A stretch of 44,573 nt of DNA from Pseudomonadota bacterium (GTDB lineage Bacteria > Pseudomonadota > Gammaproteobacteria > Steroidobacterales > Steroidobacteraceae): the NCBI GenBank assembly GCA_026398785.1, contig JAPLSF010000183.1, positions 1-44,573 of the forward strand, read 5' to 3'. The translations under genes were made by a program, and so were the position numbers. Under the pieces are notes generated by a model, which searched no databases, had not been told where the DNA came from, and saw only the letters and a program-made list of their open reading frames with translations. Shown here one piece after another: positions 29,365 through 38,149 of the stretch (within the stretch, counting starts at the first letter, position 1; every line of letters starts with the position of its first letter).

Positions 29365-30276
29365 TCAGCGCATGCGCGGAAACCGCATCCGCGATGGCAA
29401 AGCCGTCACATAGTCCGGATAGCTCTTGAGCATTCGGCACCCCTCACCGGGCGTCTGCTCGTACTGCTCGTCCCAGGGCAGCACGATCTCGATTTCGGCG
29501 ACGCCCACTTCGACCATCTTCGGCAGGATCGGCGGCACGATCCGCGTGCGCTCGGCTTCGAGCATCGCGGCCAGGCCGCCATGAAGGCGATGGCTGCTCC
29601 ACAGATCCTGCAGCGTGGCGCGGGTCGGCGGCGCCATCTTCATCTCGCCGCTCGCGACGTGCGTGCGAACGTCGGCTTCGCTGAGCCACGCGTGGTGGGT
29701 GAGTTCGCCGCGATCGACGCTCGCTTCCTGGTCTGGCGGCACGGTCAGCGCGAAGAAGCGCGTGTCGAAGCGCCGGCTCTCGAAAGCCGGTGTGATCCAG
29801 TGCGACCAGTACACGAGGCGCTCGACGTCGAGCACCAGGTCTTCATCAACGAGCATGCGTGCGAACTCGGTGGCATCGGCCGAGGCCGCCACGCGCCGTG
29901 CGGTGACGCGCGAGAGCGTTTCCGAGCCCCAATGTCCGCCGCCGCGCGGCCGTGCGAGCAGCACGCCCGACTCCTCGAACGTTTCGCGGCAGGCTGCCAG
30001 CAGCAATCCGCGCGCCGTGTCGAGGTCTATCGATGCGGTGTCGGCGTCGGCGTCGGCGCTCAGCATGCGCGAGCCGGTGTCGGCGATTGCGGCCTGGTCA
30101 GAGCGCGCGGCCAGTTCGGGCGAGAGGTCCGACGCTTCCATGCGACCGCCGGGAAACACCCACAGCCCGCCCATGAACGACAGGCCGGCAGCACGCTTGG
30201 TCAGGAGCACCTGCAGGCCGTCGCCGCTTTCCCGCAGCAGCAGGACCGTCGCGGCATGGGGAATCGTCGTCGTCAC
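29365..30276 (-). CDS. NUDIX-family hydrolase with an insertion inside the Nudix box
   Basis: The Nudix elements FPGGRMEASD ... AACRETFEESGVLL are split by an insertion of about 40 aa. I propose a GTG start at 30276, 10 nt after the upstream stop. The track ORF upstream of that point is Ser/Arg-rich junk overlapping the neighbouring gene. Confidence 0.75.
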   Translation of the reverse strand: MTTTIPHAATVLLLRESGDGLQVLLTKRAAGLSFMGGLWVFPGGRMEASDLSPELAARSDQAAIADTGSRMLSADADADTASIDLDTARGLLLAACRETFEESGVLLARPRGGGHWGSETLSRVTARRVAASADATEFARMLVDEDLVLDVERLVYWSHWITPAFESRRFDTRFFALTVPPDQEASVDRGELTHHAWLSEADVRTHVASGEMKMAPPTRATLQDLWSSHRLHGGLAAMLEAERTRIVPPILPKMVEVGVAEIEIVLPWDEQYEQTPGEGCRMLKSYPDYVTALPSRMRFPRMR

Positions 30277-30286
30277 CGCGGAAGAC

Positions 30287-31300
30287 TCAGGTGAGTTTGA
30301 CCAGCTGCTTGCCGAAGTTCTTGCCGCGCAGCATGCCGATGAACGCTGCCGGTGCGGCGGCCAGGCCGTCCGCGATCGACTCGCGATACTTGATCTTGCC
30401 GGTTGCGATGCCTTTCGCGAGCTCGCCGAGCGCCTGCGGCCAGAACTCAAGGTGCTCGGACACGATGAAGCCGCGCAGCGAGAGCCGGTTGACCAGCAGG
30501 GCACGCGTGTTGTGGATGGCGATGTCGCCGCCTTCGTAACCGGCGATGAGTCCACAGATCGCGATGCGGCCGAACGCATTCATGCGGGCCAGTGCGGCAT
30601 CGAGGCCGACGCCGCCGACGTTTTCGAACAGGCAGTCGATGCCGTTCGGCGCGGCTTCCTTCAGTGCGACGCTCATCGAACGGATGTCCTGGTGCTCGCG
30701 GTGGTCGATGCAGGCATCGAAGCCGAGTTCGTCTCGCACGTAGGCGCACTTCTCGGGACCGCCGGCAATGCCGACCGCGCGGCAGCCAGCCATCTTGGCG
30801 AGCTGGCCCACGACCGAACCCACGGCGCCGCTCGCTGCGGACACCAGCACGGTCTCGCCGGCCTTGGGTTGGCAGATCTGGTTCAGGCCGTACCAGGCGG
30901 TGACGCCGGGCATGCCGACGGGGCCGAGATAAGCCGAGAGTGGAACGTGTTTCGTGTCGACCTTGTTGAGGCCGGTGCCGTCCGAGACGCCGTATTCCTG
31001 CCAGCCCAGGAACCCTATGACGGCGTCGCCGGGGGCGAATTTCGGGTTCTGCGAGGCTTCGACGACGCCTGCCGTGCCGCCGAGCATCGTCTCGCCAATC
31101 GCCTGCGGCGCCGAGTACGACTTGGCGTCGTCCATGCGGCCGCGCATGTACGGATCGAGCGACAGGAAGTGATTGCGCACCAGCACCTGGCCGGGACCCA
31201 CGGTGGGTACGGGAACATGCTCGAGGCGGAAGTTATCCGGCGAGACGGCGCCGCCCTGCGGGCGGCTGGCCAGGACGATGCGCTGGTAGGTCTGGGTCAT
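30287..31300 (-). CDS. NADP-dependent oxidoreductase (MDR superfamily; PTGR/YncB/CurA-like alkenal/enone reductase)
   Basis: The start is at ATG 31300 (MTQTYQRIVLASRPQGG...). It has the Rossmann motif VLVSAASGAVGSVVGQLAKMAGCRAVGIAG and the family-typical end GKNFGKQLVKL. Confidence 0.9.
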   Translation of the reverse strand: MTQTYQRIVLASRPQGGAVSPDNFRLEHVPVPTVGPGQVLVRNHFLSLDPYMRGRMDDAKSYSAPQAIGETMLGGTAGVVEASQNPKFAPGDAVIGFLGWQEYGVSDGTGLNKVDTKHVPLSAYLGPVGMPGVTAWYGLNQICQPKAGETVLVSAASGAVGSVVGQLAKMAGCRAVGIAGGPEKCAYVRDELGFDACIDHREHQDIRSMSVALKEAAPNGIDCLFENVGGVGLDAALARMNAFGRIAICGLIAGYEGGDIAIHNTRALLVNRLSLRGFIVSEHLEFWPQALGELAKGIATGKIKYRESIADGLAAAPAAFIGMLRGKNFGKQLVKLT

Positions 31301-31317
31301 GGTGGGCGGTGCTCCTC

Positions 31318-31339
31318 GTGCGAAGGAGCATCTTCGCAC
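31318..31339 (-). promoter_or_regulatory. Perfect 8-bp hairpin just upstream of the oxidoreductase Shine-Dalgarno sequence, with an alternative pairing that sequesters the Shine-Dalgarno sequence
   Basis: GTGCGAAG (31318-31325) pairs with CTTCGCAC (31332-31339) around a 6-nt loop. Alternatively, CTCCT (31313-31317) can pair with AGGAG (31324-31328). On the minus strand this alternative stem pairs an upstream CTCCT with the GAGGAG Shine-Dalgarno sequence. Confidence 0.3.
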
Positions 31340-31406
31340 GGGGAGCGGCTTGGTGTCCGACGTGGGTGGTTGACGCGGTTGGAATCCTGGGTCGGGACCG
31401 CGCCTT

Positions 31407-31976
31407 TCAAGCATCGTGGAGCTTTCGTTCGGCGTATTCGAGCTTGGCCCGATCGGCCGTGCCGAGCATGGTCCTCACCGGGTCGAGAAACTTCACGACC
31501 GTGGCCAGATCCTTCGCATGCCAGGCCTCAGTCGCGCCGTTCAATGCCAGACGCAGACGATTCTCGGTTGCGTAGCGGGCGGCTTCGGCGTCGCGTTGAG
31601 TGACGAGGCGCGACCAAGCTCCTTCGTCGCCACGCAGTAGCGGCACGCAATACGTTGCCAGGAGCTTTGCCATGATCTCCAGCAACTGCCGCACCGACCT
31701 CTCGTCGCGCGCCGCGTAACCCGTGGGCTGAAGACAAGCCGGGACCGAGGACGCGCGGATGACTTCGTCAAAACCGAAGTCCGGTCCGCGTGCCGCGTCG
31801 CGTCTGTTCAGGCCGATGAAGACCTCGCTTGAGCGTTGACTGTCGTGACCCACGGCCAGTTTGCAGGCCGTGGATTCGTACATGGCCAGGTCGGGCTCTT
31901 TGGCGATACGCACGAAGCCGTGCCCGGTCAGTGTGGCTCCAAGGATCTCGTCTGCGATCAAAGTGAATTCACTCAT
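31407..31976 (-). CDS. 189-aa hypothetical protein; candidate cognate immunity protein of the RHS C-terminal toxin
   Basis: ATG (31976-31974) overlaps the RHS stop TGA (31975-31973) as ATGA. The product is cytoplasmic-looking, with no signal peptide or TM segment (MSEFTLIADEILGATLTGHGFVRIAKEPDL...KLEYAERKLHDA). I recognise no domain. The gene call is solid, but the immunity role is inferred from position. Confidence 0.6.
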   Translation of the reverse strand: MSEFTLIADEILGATLTGHGFVRIAKEPDLAMYESTACKLAVGHDSQRSSEVFIGLNRRDAARGPDFGFDEVIRASSVPACLQPTGYAARDERSVRQLLEIMAKLLATYCVPLLRGDEGAWSRLVTQRDAEAARYATENRLRLALNGATEAWHAKDLATVVKFLDPVRTMLGTADRAKLEYAERKLHDA

Positions 31977-34900
31977 GGTTTCGGTGGGTGATAGGCACCC
32001 GTCTCCGCGTTGTATTGCCAACCGTGCGATTCGAGCAGCTTGCGTTCGGCATTTAGGAAACGACCGGGTGAGCCGGGCGTCGCTCCCGCCGGGATCTGAA
32101 GGCCCGACGGTGTGCGATACGAGTCGTGAATGGGTTCCTGCCGGCGTATCTCAGCGCGAAGCTTCCCTGCGTTCTGCTGCCAGTTTGCCTTCGCCGACCC
32201 GCGGTTGGGAAGGAAGAGCATCCAGTCCCCGCGCTTCCAATTTCCGGCGGCGCCGCGTGTGAGGTTTCCGTCACGACCAGCGCGGTACAGATTCAGGCCG
32301 CCTGACTCGATTGCACTCGTCGACTTCGCTGCACGCCGTAATGCCTTCGTAGGCGCCAGAATCGACTGACACGGTTTGACGACGTCGCAAACGGTGAAGC
32401 CGACATAAAGAATGGCCGTGGCGTTGTCGCCCCGTTGTGCAGCGTCGTACGCGTCCCTGGCGTCGTGGACGGACGAGAGGATCAGGACGTCGACCGCGTT
32501 GATCCCGAGATCGATGAAGAGGCGTTCGAGGTTTTCCTGCGCGTACTCGTCGTCGACAGACGTTTCTGCCCAGGTCGACGTCGGTACGCCGCTTCCTGCC
32601 CCTCCCGGCGCACCTGCATACAGGATGGTGCCGCCGCAGGTAGGTGAGAAGGTCCCCGCACCGCACAGTCCCACGCCGTTCTGCGCCGACCGGCCGGGCA
32701 ATGCGGTCGCCGGCGGCGGCGGCAAGCCGCCATGGTTAAGCAGGCCGTAGGCGAGCGAAGACAGGATCGAGTCGACAACGAATTTGCCGACATAGATCGA
32801 AAGGCCGCCGTCAACGAGGTAACCCGTGGGGTCCGTCGCGTTCAGCGGCCGGTTGCCGACGTACGCATACGGATTCACCGCCTGCGAGTCGCCCAGGTCG
32901 CCGATCAGCGGGTCGGCCGAGAGGAACCGGCCAAGTGCCGGGTCGTATACGCGACCGTTCATGTGGACGAGTCCGACGTTGTCGAGCATTTCGTGCCCGG
33001 TGAAACCCTGGCGGGTCGTGTTGGCGATGCCCAGCCAGTCCGGTGCGGTCGTTGCACTCCAGTTACCGCCGCGTCGGGTGCCGAACGTACCGAAGCTTTC
33101 CTTGGCAACCGTCACGCCCGCTTCGTTCAGCAACGTGTCGCTGCTGCCGAGGTGGTCTGGCATGACATAGGTCGTGGAACTCGTGGCATTCGAGTTGCGC
33201 GAGATGACGACGGTCGAACCGCCGGGTGTCGGCACGTAGTGCCGCCAGTACGTCACGCCGGTAGAGGTCGTGGATTCCTTCTCGAGCAGCCTGCCGAGGT
33301 ATTGCGTCGTCTCGGTGCCGTTCTGGTAGCGTGCGACCTGGCGCCAGCGCTCGTGATCGGGACCGTAGGCAATCTGGGCCTGATAACCCGGTTTGCGCAA
33401 CGTGGTTGGCAGGTTGAACGAAGCCCAGTCCTGGGCGAGGCCGTTGCGCGACGCAAGATTGCCGTTGCCGTCGTACGTGAACGTTTCACTGCCGGCGGCC
33501 GTCACTGCATGCGGTCGCGATGCGTTGCCGTAGGCGTAGCTCCCGATGTCCGATTTCTGCAGGATGTTGCCCGATGCGTCATAGCTCACGGACAGGTTCG
33601 CCGCTCCGTTCAGCGTGGAGTTCGTCACGCGATCGAGCCCGTCGTAGGTGAAGGCTTCGGCCAGGTTCTGATTCAGGTCGCGTCGCTGCAGGAGGTTGCC
33701 GGCCCCGTCCCACTGGTAGGCGAGGTTCTGGCGGGCGCTGCCGGCACCGGCGGGGCCCGCTTGCTGCGTTGTAAGGCGCTGTGTCGCCGCGTCATAGCTC
33801 GACGATCGCGAGATGGTATTGCCCGACAGCGACTCCTGGGTCGGCGCATCGAAATCGCTGACCGCGTCGAGCTTCCAGAGCGTGCGCGGCGTCGCCAGCG
33901 TGACGTCGTCGATCTGCGATGGCGCGCCGAAGCTGTACGAGTAGCGGAGCCGGAGTCGACCGCCCGATTGACCCGAGGGCACTGGACTGTACGGATAGGT
34001 CAGCGTGCCGATCTCGCCGATCGAGTTGTACGTGTAGTCGTACTTGTAGCTCTGGCCCGTCGTGATCGTGCGCTTGCTGACGCGGCCGAGGCCGTCGTAG
34101 GCGAGCGTTTCCGAATAGCCGAGGCCGGCCTTCGACTGCAATCGTCCGATGTTGTGAGCGGTCGCCGACGAGCCCCACGTCCAGGTGCTGGTGCCCTCGG
34201 GTTCGGTGCGGGACAGTCTGCGGCCGAGCGTGTCGTAGTCCGCAGCGAACGATCGCCCATTTGCGTCGGTCCAGGCGACGACTTCACCGAGCGAGTTGTG
34301 CGTAAAGATCCAAGCTCCAGCGTCCGCATCCGACCACTGCGTGCGGAACCCACGCACATCGTAGGTGCCGGTCGAGACCGCCCCGATGGCGTCCTGGATG
34401 CGATTGAGGTGACCGAGTGAGTCGTAGTCGTACCGCGTCGTGCCGCCGGGGGACGGATCCATCGCGCGACGCAGGTTGCCAGCGACATCCACGATGCGGG
34501 ACCGCGAACGACCGAGCGTGTCCGTGAGTGTCGTGGTCCGACCGGAGTAGGTGAGGCTCGAGTTGCGAACGATTGCGCCGCCGCCGTCATAGTCGCGCTC
34601 GCTGAGCGGTCGACCGAGTGGGTCGAAGATCCGGATCGTGTGGCCGTTGAGGACGCTCGCATAGGGTCGCGATTCACGGGTCATGCGCCCCGCTGCGTCG
34701 TAGTCGTACGTCCGATGCAGCCAGGTGCCGAGCGCACCGTGGTACTCCTCCAGCCGCGGGCGCTCGTAGCCGTCGTAGTAGGAATGGTGCTCGCGGATCA
34801 GCGTGCCGTCGGCCGCGTAGTTGCGGTCGTACACGAGGAAGCGAAGTTCGCCCGTGCCCCAGCATCCGGTCGTGCCGCACGACTGGAAGGTCCACGTCCG

Positions 34901-37900
34901 GCGCGTGCCGTCGCTCGCCGTCTCGTTGACCCGGCGTCCGAATGGGTCGTGTGACCACGTCGTCGCCAGCCCGTTCGGATCCGTGACGCGCGTCGGCACG
35001 CCGAAGTCGTAGCGCCATTCGTAGGTCGTCGTTGCCGCTGCCGCGTTGGTGGCGGACTCGGGCAGCTGGCAGCGGCTGCCATAGTTGAAGCTCGCCGTCC
35101 TGGCCGCCATCGCCGTACCGTTGGGGTTCGAGCCCACGGTGCGCACAGAGTTCAGGTTGCCGCAGCCGTCGAAGCCGAACGAGGTGATGACCTTCAATGC
35201 GGGGATGTTCGGTTCGACCACCTGCTGCGTGATCCGGCATGGCACCGGGTCGGTCTCGTACGTCGTCGTTTGCGTCACGGCGGACTGGTCGGGTGCAGTG
35301 CTCGTCGTCGAGCGGCTGACGGGCAGGCCCAGGCACCAGTTGCCCGACGGGTCATTCATGTAACCGAGACTCAACGTCGAGCGCCACGCGCTGTTCACGT
35401 GCGGCGAGTATGGGTCCCGGTCCCAGGTGGTGTTCTGCACCTGAGTGGGATTGCCGTAGCCGTCGCCGTACGTGAACGTCGTTGCCGCTTCCGTCACCAG
35501 CGTGCCATTGAGAGCCCCGCCGTGTTCGAACTGCCTCAGGCTGGTGGACGCGACGAAAGGGAATGCGCGCTGTTCGCTGCCCGCCGGACCCATCGCCTGC
35601 AGGCCGAGGACCGCCTGCCATTGGCGCACGGGCGTCGAGCCGTTGGCCTGGAACACGTCGCGCTGCACGTGCATTCCTGTGTATGGGAACGCCCGTGACA
35701 CGGTGTCGAGCGTGACGAGGCCCGTGCGTGTGTCCTCGATGCGTTGCGTCGCGAATCCCTGGAAGCCACGTCCTTGCAGGTGCAACTGCGCGCCGGAGTA
35801 TTGCAATCGGTTGCGGTAGACGCCGCCGGTTCCGTCGGTTGCGCTGAACTCGCTCACCACGTACAGCGGGCCCTGGAAATCGGCCGCCGGAAAGACCGCG
35901 TCGTTCAGGCGCGTGTGGTTGCTGCGCGCGATCGAAACGTAGGTCGGGTTCTGGCGCACGCCGAACCCGTCGACGAACGCCGTGGCCAGATCGGCTGGCA
36001 CAGCCGGGCCCGCGTGCAGCTGGTAGCGCAAGCGGTTGCCGTCGCGGTAAGCGAGATCGGTGAGTCCGTCGCCATCGGCGTCCAGGTCGAACCAGACGGT
36101 GGAGGTGGGCGCGCTGATACCCGTGCTGACAGGTGCAGCTGCGCCTTCGCCGGTCGAGCGCACGACGAACCACTGTCGCGTTGCGGCATCGATGTACAGC
36201 AGGTCGGCGCGACCATCGCCGTTCCAGTCCGCCGGGAGCGCCGTGTACAGCGTATTGCCGGTTGCGGCCGTTGCCCTGGTCGGGAGCTCGACAAAGGCGC
36301 CAGCGCAGTTCGAGACGAATACGGTCTGCACCTGGAGGATGTCGGAGCAGCCGTCGGCGTTCCAGTCGCCCATCGTCACCATCGACTCCTGCACCAGCAG
36401 TTTTTCGGTGCCGACTGTGAATGCGTTGCCGAAACCGTTCGACAGCAACGGCGTGGCAAAGAACTTCGAATTGCGGTCCAGCTTGTTGAAGGTCAGCGCG
36501 ACGATGTCCGCGCGGCCGTCACCGTTGAGATCCGCGACGCGCAGGTTGTCCCAGGGCGTCGCCTGCCGCAGGCTCGGTATCGTCCACACGGACTGCGCGG
36601 TCGCAGCGAACTGAACTGCGAGCGAAGTGCTCGCGGGAGCGCTGACGTTGCGGCGCACGTTGATGGTCGGCGTCAGGCCGCCGCTCTGCGCCACGAGGTC
36701 GGCGAGGCCGTCGCCGTCGAAATCCGCTGCGCCGTATTCCCCGGTGGGGATCAGGCCGGTGTTCGCGGTGGTGAAGCCCGCGTTGGTGTAACCGGCGACG
36801 TACCAATACCCGTTCTGCACGACCAGGAATTGCGTGCGGCCGTTACCGGCGAAGTTGCCCGGAATGATCGTGTGTGTCGTGCTCGTCACCAGGCCGGTGT
36901 CGAGCGGAGCGGCGAAGCCCACTGGGGTTCCGAGGAGAATGCGCCAGCTCAATTTGCCGGTGCCGGCATCGACGGGATAGAGCAGGTCCGTGACGCCATC
37001 GCCGTTCAGTTCGAGGGGCACTGGCGCCCTGGCGGTCGAGACGGCCACGCCGGTATCGACCATGGGTTGCCAGCCGCTCGCGCCGCTCTGGTAGGTGATC
37101 GCGGTGGGCTGCAGGCACGTCGAGGCTGCACACTCCTGCACACTGGCCAGTCGCAGCCGTCCCGAGACCGGGGCGGTCTCGTAGCCAAGCGCGTACGTCT
37201 TGATCGGCGTCGCTGCGTCCATGACCTGGATCGCGATCCGGTCGAGCTGGTACGGATCGCGTACCAGGTTGCCGGCGAGGTAACCCGTGGGAACGTCGCT
37301 CGCAGGACGAGCGGAATATGCGAAGTCGACGCGATAGAAAGGGCCTGCGCCGGTGGCGGTCGTCGGGTAGGCAATCGAAGCGATTCGATGGGTACCGTTC
37401 GTGTACGCGCCGTACTGCGCTTCGTTGGCGTAAGTGAGGGTGATGGCATTGCCCGTGCCGACGCCTGCCCGGTCGCGGACACGCGACAGCGCCCAGGCAC
37501 GAATCGTGGGCGACGCACCCGCATAGACGCGCGAATCGACGGTACCGCCGTACTCGTAGATCAACCCGTTCTTGGTCGTTACCGTGAATGAGGCGGGGCC
37601 GTTGCCTGCGGCGCCGTTCGCGACGATCCGCGAAAACGTCTCCACCTCGGTGGCATAGACGGCACCAGCCATGCCTTGCGTGCCGCTCACGAGCTTGAGT
37701 TGCTGGCCGTCGAGGCAGTAGCGATCGGCCAGGGTGTTGGTGACGCCGGCCGTAGCGCCGTCCTGGGCCCAGGTGCGATTGCAGCGCGCGATCGTCGAAA
37801 GCCCCGCGATCGACCAACCTACGCCAACAGAGCCGCTGCCGCCGCGGCTGGCATACACCAGCGCGAGATCGAGATCGACCTCGCCGACGCCCGGTGGCGT

Positions 37901-38149
37901 CCACAGCGGGATGCGATACGTTGCGGCACCCGAGTGCGAGACGCCGAACTCGGCGGGCGTGCGACCGGCGGTCGAAGCATCTGCGACACCGGCGAGCGCA
38001 GCGGTGGCGTAGGTGCCTGGCGTCCCCGCGCTTGCCAGCGAGCCGGACGCGCCAGCGCCGGATATGCCTGTGATCGAAGCTGCAATCAGTGCGATACCGA
38101 TCGAGCGGCCGTGCCGGGCCAGCCACTGCATCCCTGCGTCATTCCACAT
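31973..38149 (-). CDS. Giant secreted RHS-repeat toxin: signal peptide, SpvB/TcaC N-terminal domain, 7-blade FG-GAP propeller, TcdB-mid-like region, RHS/YD cocoon, RHS core and a variable C-terminal toxin (TcB-TcC-like fusion)
   Basis: - Size and start: the product is 2058 aa. A GGGAGA Shine-Dalgarno sequence lies 7 nt before ATG 38149.
- N-terminus: the signal-like segment is [20 protein letters not shown].
- SpvB-type block: [46 protein letters not shown].
- FG-GAP motifs (seven): [77 protein letters not shown].
- YD repeats: many are present, for example [56 protein letters not shown] and YDGNGNLA.
- RHS core: [11 protein letters not shown]...[33 protein letters not shown]...[19 protein letters not shown]. 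Confidence 0.95.
   Translation of the reverse strand: [2058 protein letters not shown]
31976..32818 (-). other. Variable C-terminal payload (aa 1778-2058, 281 aa) of the RHS protein, downstream of the DPTGY core boundary
   Basis: I mapped the boundary on the DNA: the Tyr codon of DPTGY is at 32819-32821. The payload opens with a hydrophobic segment ([22 protein letters not shown]) and a Gly/Pro linker. It ends in a basic region of about 110 aa ([63 protein letters not shown]...[18 protein letters not shown]). I recognise no known toxin motif. Confidence 0.6.

Follow-up and report, generated by a model that had tools for sequence, protein, structure and literature searches.

Does the open reading frame (ORF) that overlaps the stop codon of a large RHS gene protect its own cell against the toxin that this gene encodes? 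The question is raised by a 44,573-nucleotide stretch of DNA from a member of the Steroidobacteraceae (contig JAPLSF010000183.1 of assembly GCA_026398785.1), analysed here as a whole and called the window, in which the gene of a 2058-residue SpvB/propeller/RHS protein is directly followed, on the minus strand, by an ORF of 189 codons. An original prediction made from the DNA letters had proposed that the product of this ORF belongs to an unknown family and confers immunity to the C-terminal payload of the RHS protein. Genomic co-occurrence, together with the joint exchange of tip and ORF in sister genomes, supports the proposal. From these sequence comparisons, the ORF is very probably the cognate immunity gene of the RHS toxin tip formed by residues ~1944-2058. 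The argument turns on the following features.

31973-38149, minus strand: SpvB/FG-GAP/TcdB_midN/RHS protein, 2058 residues, assigned from Pfam, NCBIfam and the core motif.
32321-32818, minus strand: pre-tip part of the putatively released C-terminal region, residues 1778-1943, shared by relatives with different tips.
31973-32320, minus strand: candidate toxin tip, RHS residues ~1944-2058 plus the stop codon, an uncatalogued family.
31973-31976, minus strand: ATGA, where the RHS stop TGA (31975-31973) overlaps the ORF start ATG (31976-31974).
31407-31976, minus strand: candidate cognate immunity ORF, 189 residues, supported by the ORF call, homologues, an AlphaFold2 model and the cassette comparison.
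31400-32320, minus strand: swappable tip/immunity cassette of ~0.92 kb, delimited by the loss of DNA homology to sister loci with other tips and by a lower GC content at third codon positions (GC3).

The ORF downstream of the RHS gene

Because spurious long ORFs are common in the window (66% GC), the reality of the 189-codon ORF was checked. Its close homologues (n=31) have the common start M-[ST]-E-F, and 29 of the 31 are exactly 189 residues long (range 183-190). A profile search among 1.84 billion representatives, at E <= 1e-3, returned 1,099 clusters of ~190 residues with end-to-end matches in nearly all, which gives a family size of ~1,100 clusters counted at 50% identity. AlphaFold2 modelled the product with a mean predicted local distance difference test (pLDDT) score of 91.5, predicting an N-terminal helix, a four-stranded sheet and a C-terminal half made of a long helical bundle. 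In view of the close homologues with the same start, the number of clusters and the confident model, the ORF is a real gene and not an artefact of the high GC content.

The junction with the RHS gene is as originally described. On the minus strand it reads ccATGAgt, within CCACCGAAACCATGAGTGAA, the ORF start overlapping the RHS stop, and the ORF ends with the TGA codon at 31409-31407. Homologue alignment favours the ATG at 31976 over an upstream TTG at 32021. The four-nucleotide ATGA overlap is kept in the sister genomes; elsewhere it is present in 24 of 71 clean toxin-ORF pairs, the others having gaps of 0-65 nucleotides. From its sequence, this overlap is a candidate site of termination-reinitiation coupling. 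A scan for promoters and terminators around the RHS/ORF junction found nothing.

The ORF product shows neither a signal peptide nor a transmembrane segment (maximal 19-residue Kyte-Doolittle mean 1.24), and no Pfam, NCBIfam or PADLOC match was obtained, in agreement with the original statement that no motif could be recognised in it. Its isoelectric point (pI) is 6.1, against 10.3 for the tip, and the protein is predicted to be acidic and cytoplasmic. When 73 members of the family were compared with Pfam (immunity families such as Imm1-74 and SUKH included) and NCBIfam, no family matched more than one member, the single-member matches being weak chance hits. No relative was found in the PDB by sequence search, and a Foldseek comparison of the model with the PDB gave a best E of 0.56, the Tsi1 matches at E ~2-3 not being significant.

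Exchange and co-occurrence of the tip and the ORF

Scanning GTDB genomes with the conserved pre-tip segment located 23 orthologous loci in Steroidobacteraceae-like metagenome-assembled genomes. A search with the C-terminal 281 residues showed relatives alike up to '...CDVVKPCQSILAPTKALRRAAKS' and different beyond it. At least five tip types stand behind this common junction in the orthologous RHS genes, among them the following, each given with the gene behind it.

Window-type tip: 189-residue ORF family, in L007, L009 and L012, and also in L014, L019 and L024 with assembly frameshifts.
'VVQRAMSRAELDAT...THYVSD' tip: 95-residue ORF 'MSRGSI.VSDPWD...', in L008, L010, L013, L023 and others.
Ntox10 (PF15520) tip: Imm27 (PF15590), in L011 and L006.
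Further tip type: 123-residue ORF, in L018.

By profile hidden Markov models (HMMs), all six GTDB sister loci with the window-type tip contain the ORF family, and the 16 other loci all lack it. Comparison with loci bearing other tips (L008, L010, L011, L013, L016, L018, L023) showed a DNA homology of 72-92% on both sides of the cassette, which ends at window positions 32316-32332 and returns at 31400-31356, that is, 7-51 nucleotides past the ORF stop; the same-tip loci L007 and L009 are collinear with the window throughout. What is exchanged therefore consists of the final ~115 RHS codons together with the 189-residue ORF and nothing else. As expected of an imported cassette, this unit has a lower GC3 (0.68 in the tip and 0.73 in the ORF) than the remainder of the RHS gene (0.82) or the downstream oxidoreductase gene (0.86). 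The Ntox10/Imm27 cassette (L006, L011) occupies the identical site between the pre-tip region and the oxidoreductase gene, with an ATGA-type overlap and the same boundaries, although its sequences are unrelated and Imm27 has ~95 residues against the 189 of the ORF product. The cognate unit is thus narrower than originally proposed, when the whole of residues 1778-2058 was taken as the payload: the last ~115 residues (~1944-2058) retain this role, and residues 1778-1943 lose it as a pre-tip region common to all tip types.

The same association holds elsewhere. A metagenome scan with the tip-homologue alignment yielded 80 loci with a tip identity of 35-99%, of which 77 were informative, having at least 275 nucleotides past the toxin stop; all 77 contain, by HMM, a same-strand ORF homologue starting -4 to +65 nucleotides from the toxin stop, and the three loci without a match have <140 nucleotides downstream. 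Tip and ORF are also adjacent at L004, L046-L048 and L129-L138. In the reverse look-up, two distant ORF homologues (23-25% identity) each had a tip homologue directly upstream, one of these tips being an orphan fragment inside a toxin/immunity gene array.

The carriers of the tip are diverse, and the anticipated co-occurrence of the pair regardless of the N-terminal delivery domain was indeed observed. Besides several kinds of long RHS proteins, they comprise proteins of ~300 residues in which a signal peptide and an RHS core accompany the tip (L077, L082, L110), standalone proteins reduced to a signal peptide and the tip (P0054/P0061, L068, L115, L117), a PT-TG and tip protein (P0063) and carriers with no RHS domain (L088, L094, L102), among which L094 has a VENN motif with no Pfam PT-VENN match. 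Tandem copies occur at L079 and L081. Tip and ORF are thus one heritable and exchangeable module, strictly adjacent and found on many unrelated delivery scaffolds. Neither was matched by tblastn among 72,556 plasmids, and the named members of both families are all labelled 'hypothetical protein'.

The two partners also diverge in parallel. Over 62 non-redundant pairs, pairwise identities of the tip and of the ORF product are correlated (r = 0.70, a value reached by none of 2000 permutations), some correlation being given by linkage alone. In these pairs the tip core averages 57% identity and the ORF product, which diverges much faster, 25%. A faster divergence of the immunity partner is the pattern usually seen in toxin/immunity pairs.

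One gene array, at L133-L138 (for example L133:2-2588), opens with the 3' end of a toxin gene and continues with a DUF6188 gene, an orphan tip fragment together with its ORF-family partner, and a new gene for a signal-peptide RHS-core protein. The DUF6188 gene is probably the immunity gene of the preceding toxin, and DUF6188 may be another uncharacterised immunity family.

Regarding the other tips of the sister genomes, that of L018, also seen in P0051 and P0058, is of an uncatalogued type, '...W..MS..EQWAANQKFLDRAIARGD.IVLS...F..EL.YL...G', with a strand-helix-strand-helix layout; this pattern and the motif spacing recall the window tip, and a remote relationship between the two tips is possible. 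The 'VVQRAMSRAELDAT' tip, of HYD type, was considered as a confident TreTu relative and dismissed, its similarity to TreTu_C being weak (E 0.18). L005 (896-1611) has a divergent tip, a 129-residue ORF and then a 109-residue copy of the 95-residue 'SDPWD' family, and L025 (6306-6566) a frameshifted HYD-type tip with its partner and then an Imm27-like ORF; the left-over immunity genes of both loci look, from their sequences, like traces of successive cassette displacement. In L001/L012 (GCA_016705325.1), a stretch of ~30 residues at RHS positions ~1990-2020, LSFKPRLRKGKRQDARAAREGPTTRTP, looks like a compensated double frameshift relative to the window and to L002. It is probably an assembly error, because the near-identical metagenome contig L056 reads normally.

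The RHS protein, its tip and the surrounding genes

The RHS protein matches the Pfam families SpvB (residues 71-250), FG-GAP repeats (FG-GAP_3), TcdB_toxin_midN and RHS_repeat, and the NCBIfam family Rhs_assc_core below its cutoff (21.2 bits vs 32.5, E 3e-4). Its N-terminus has a basic and then a hydrophobic, signal-like segment. The end of the Rhs core is marked at residues 1777/1778 by the motif NRPLNATDPTGY, followed by L and continuing, as NRPLNATDPTGY and LVDGG, across the putative cut. By its domain content, the 2058-residue protein looks like a BC-fused polymorphic toxin of the TcdB/TcaC class.

The first ~165 residues past the core cleavage motif form the pre-tip region (residues 1778-1943), which has no Pfam match. 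It is composed of a hydrophobic segment, the sequence LPPPPATALPG, a Cys-rich CGAGTFSPTCGG stretch and a helical pre-toxin-like module, and may have a role in release or translocation instead of toxicity.

The tip itself is basic (pI 10.3; median of the tip family 9.9), the pI of the C-terminal payload of ~280 residues being 8.35. Its core motif is GS.KANW.QN...LR..M..G.PI.D...FLNAER.LL...GW, and the residues W42, N45, R50, I59, D61, F83, E87, R88 and L91 are invariant (numbered on the 110-residue segment encoded at window positions 31976-32305; adding 1948 gives the RHS numbering). Searches with the tip, 58 tip homologues and 10 full toxin proteins gave no Pfam or NCBIfam match beyond the RHS parts, and the tip had no PDB match by sequence. 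The AlphaFold2 model, built on an alignment of 9 sequences, has an alternating strand-helix pattern and a pLDDT of 64.5; a PDB fold search with this low-scoring query gave no match, a negative that carries no weight. The ORF product without an export signal and the invariant N, R, D and E-R residues weakly suggest that the tip might be an enzyme with a cytoplasmic target, and its basic charge with the invariant Arg, Asn, Asp and Glu gives an equally weak hint of a nucleotide or nucleic-acid substrate.

Three related assemblies are syntenic with the window over a PAP2 gene (divergent), the RHS gene, the ORF with its ATGA overlap, and genes for an ADH_N_2 oxidoreductase, a NUDIX protein, a hypothetical protein and phosphoenolpyruvate (PEP) carboxylase. 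Their RHS proteins, of 2052 to 2061 residues, share 80-95% identity from end to end. The neighbours in the window include genes for PAP2, an S9 peptidase, a glyoxalase/SnoaL protein, an ABC-F ATPase, a TonB-dependent receptor and a CoA-transferase. Neither the 44.5-kb window nor the syntenic loci contain a TcA-sized gene, the largest other ORF of the window (916 residues) being that of PEP carboxylase.

Two entries of the ORF list around the cassette were discarded. A 375-residue ORF (31414-30287) could pass for a third coupled gene, its start at 31414 overlapping the stop of the 189-residue ORF as 'ATGcTTGA'. This overlap is spurious: in Pfam and NCBIfam alignments the oxidoreductase matches only from residue ~44, its orthologues start with MTQTYQ, at ~31303, and the list had over-extended it by 37 codons. 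A 662-residue antisense ORF (29615-31603) is an artefact of the high GC content. Just outside the swapped cassette lies one further element.

31318-31339 (extended stem ~31312-31345), minus strand: conserved hairpin GTGCGAAG-N6-CTTCGCAC, ~15 nucleotides upstream of the oxidoreductase start (~31303).

This hairpin is kept in most sister loci whatever the preceding cassette, and the probable Shine-Dalgarno sequence would fall within its outer CUCC/GGAG pairs. The hairpin may close the operon as a stem with no U-tract, or it may control translation of the oxidoreductase gene. A search of the window against Rfam, hairpin included, gave no match.

Function of the pair and its place among known systems

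Based on these features, the RHS and ORF genes would be co-transcribed and translationally coupled through the ATGA overlap, and every toxin-making cell would therefore also make the partner. The RHS shell would enclose the C-terminal region of the protein, and the aspartyl autoprotease of the Rhs core would cut after DPTGY, at residue 1777, freeing residues 1778-2058 inside the shell. The SpvB/propeller/RHS protein would be exported through Sec and would then carry the payload to rival bacteria. The acidic immunity protein would bind the basic tip and block it, in the producer as well as in siblings reached by the toxin.

Several points weigh against this scheme. An obligate cofactor or chaperone would co-occur with the tip just as an immunity protein does, and co-occurrence alone does not formally tell them apart. 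Nor does the pairing hold everywhere: a remote tip relative in L005 (31% identity) is followed by an unrelated 129-residue ORF, and the outer tip superfamily thus uses another partner. Lone, distant homologues of the ORF exist in Marinomonas, where the gene adjoins an Imm48 gene with no adjacent toxin, and in Micavibrio aeruginosavorus (CP195303.1, L045:8001-8573; 25% identity, HMM E 2e-58). Within the clade, window-type orthologues are 67-92% conserved in the C-terminal payload region, and the tip/ORF pair may be under little diversifying pressure there. Finally, the enzymatic assignment of the tip is weak and its model of low confidence.

Micavibrio is a predatory bacterium, and its homologue is flanked by a rhomboid protease gene and hemY, in a housekeeping region with no toxin nearby. 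Orphan immunity genes are usual in polymorphic toxin systems. Both lone copies look like such genes, and that of Micavibrio may act against the toxins of prey or competitors. The original prediction was to be given up if homologues were commonly found away from toxin genes, or if the family received an unrelated housekeeping annotation; solitary copies do occur, in these two organisms, against 77 fully paired metagenomic loci, and no such annotation exists.

Alternatively, the ORF product could be an accessory factor made with the tip: a chaperone that folds or stabilises it, a cofactor that activates it, or a second subunit of the toxin. An obligate cofactor would likewise be strictly adjacent to the tip and diverge in parallel with it. 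Known Rhs and type VI secretion system (T6SS) chaperones (Eag/DUF1795, DUF4123, DUF2169), however, follow the N-terminal delivery domain and are usually encoded upstream, whereas the ORF tracks the C-terminal tip independently of the delivery domain. Copies standing without a toxin, one of them beside Imm48, and orphan modules of a tip fragment and its ORF in arrays are typical of immunity genes, and the equivalent position at the locus is taken by Imm27 behind an Ntox10 tip. We therefore regard an accessory role as improbable. Slightly more improbable still is a type II toxin-antitoxin-like addiction or defence module attached to the RHS gene and serving cassette maintenance or phage defence. 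The tight bicistronic arrangement, the short standalone versions, the orphan modules and a tyrosine-recombinase fragment upstream in L048 would fit such a module. However, the standalone versions (P0054/P0061, L115, L117, L068) carry Sec signal peptides, from which we conclude that the toxin is exported; the toxin gene precedes its partner, RHS proteins carry most copies as their C-terminal tips, and PADLOC gave no match.

A clade-specific conserved housekeeping gene that merely abuts the RHS gene would be consistent with the synteny of the whole neighbourhood (PAP2, RHS, ORF, oxidoreductase, NUDIX, PEP carboxylase) in related genomes. Yet syntenic sister genomes with another tip lack the ORF and hold a different small gene in its place, and the metagenomic and reverse-look-up homologues follow a tip homologue in unrelated contexts. 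Given the cassette swap and this co-occurrence, the housekeeping explanation was rejected, the chance that it holds being negligible. Even added together, the three alternatives leave cognate immunity by far the best-supported function of the ORF.

The pair can be compared with several known systems. In Rhs-CT/RhsI and CdiA-CT/CdiI, a modular toxin tip stands behind a conserved delivery region, with a specific immunity gene directly downstream. The window pair shares with them the modular tip, the downstream immunity-type gene, the orphan modules in arrays and the faster divergence of the immunity partner, but the window contains no T6SS gene (VgrG, PAAR) and no CdiB partner.

A close counterpart is the 'TcdB/TcaC' trafficking class of Zhang et al. 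2012 (PMC3482391). Its members join a signal peptide to SpvB, an integrin-like beta-propeller and RHS repeats, and carry many different toxin domains with Imm partners. Like these, the window protein has this N-terminal architecture, a variable C-terminal tip and, immediately downstream, an immunity-type gene that is swapped with the tip; unlike them, its tip and ORF match no Tox/Ntox or Imm family of that catalogue, as represented in Pfam. For the canonical toxin complex (Tc), Song et al. 2021 reported no immunity genes in 1,608 loci, defined by proximity to TcA/TcB, and mentioned a natural B-C fusion protein (PMC7861908). The window protein resembles canonical Tc toxins (TcA and a TcB-TcC cocoon, for example TcdA1/TcdB2-TccC3) in its SpvB/propeller/RHS cocoon-type architecture, its Rhs core autoprotease motif and its C-terminal hypervariable region of ~280 residues. 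It differs in fusing B and C in one protein of 2058 residues, in the immunity-type gene of its locus and in the absence of a TcA gene from the window.

The original prediction had treated BC cocoons as carrying no immunity gene. This is correct for canonical TcABC loci (PMC7861908) and does not extend to the SpvB/propeller/RHS class, whose Imm partners were already described (PMC3482391), which makes the arrangement less surprising than had been held. With polymorphic toxin/immunity systems, the tip/ORF family has in common a variable tip, a co-varying downstream gene, several delivery modules and orphan or lone modules. Of the traits of canonical Tc, the window protein has the domain architecture; a TcA gene is absent from the window and the syntenic loci, and an immunity-type partner is present where canonical Tc, with its anti-eukaryotic payload, has none. 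Because no TcA gene is nearby and an immunity-type partner is present, the window RHS protein is placed, on its sequence, among the polymorphic toxins and not with canonical Tc.

SpvB/propeller/RHS polymorphic toxins with immunity partners are thus already known, having been catalogued in 2012, and the arrangement is ordinary. No concept is overturned, immunity genes behind RHS toxins being expected. The novelty lies in the two protein families themselves, that of the tip and that of its immunity partner, which are large and uncatalogued. It is possible, though we hold it more doubtful than probable, that the tip and the ORF define a widespread uncharacterised superfamily, with at least 1,100 immunity clusters at 50% identity, new folds and a new toxic chemistry for both, and a Sec-exported BC-fusion carrier with no TcA in the window. 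If true, this would represent a novel route for an RHS-encapsulated payload into the cytoplasm of rival bacteria. The locus provides a clean natural cassette swap that sets the limits of a toxin tip and its partner gene at nucleotide resolution, and defines two sizeable protein families labelled only as hypothetical in current databases. The SpvB/propeller/RHS ('TcdB/TcaC') class, so far poorly understood, gains an antibacterial-type cassette.

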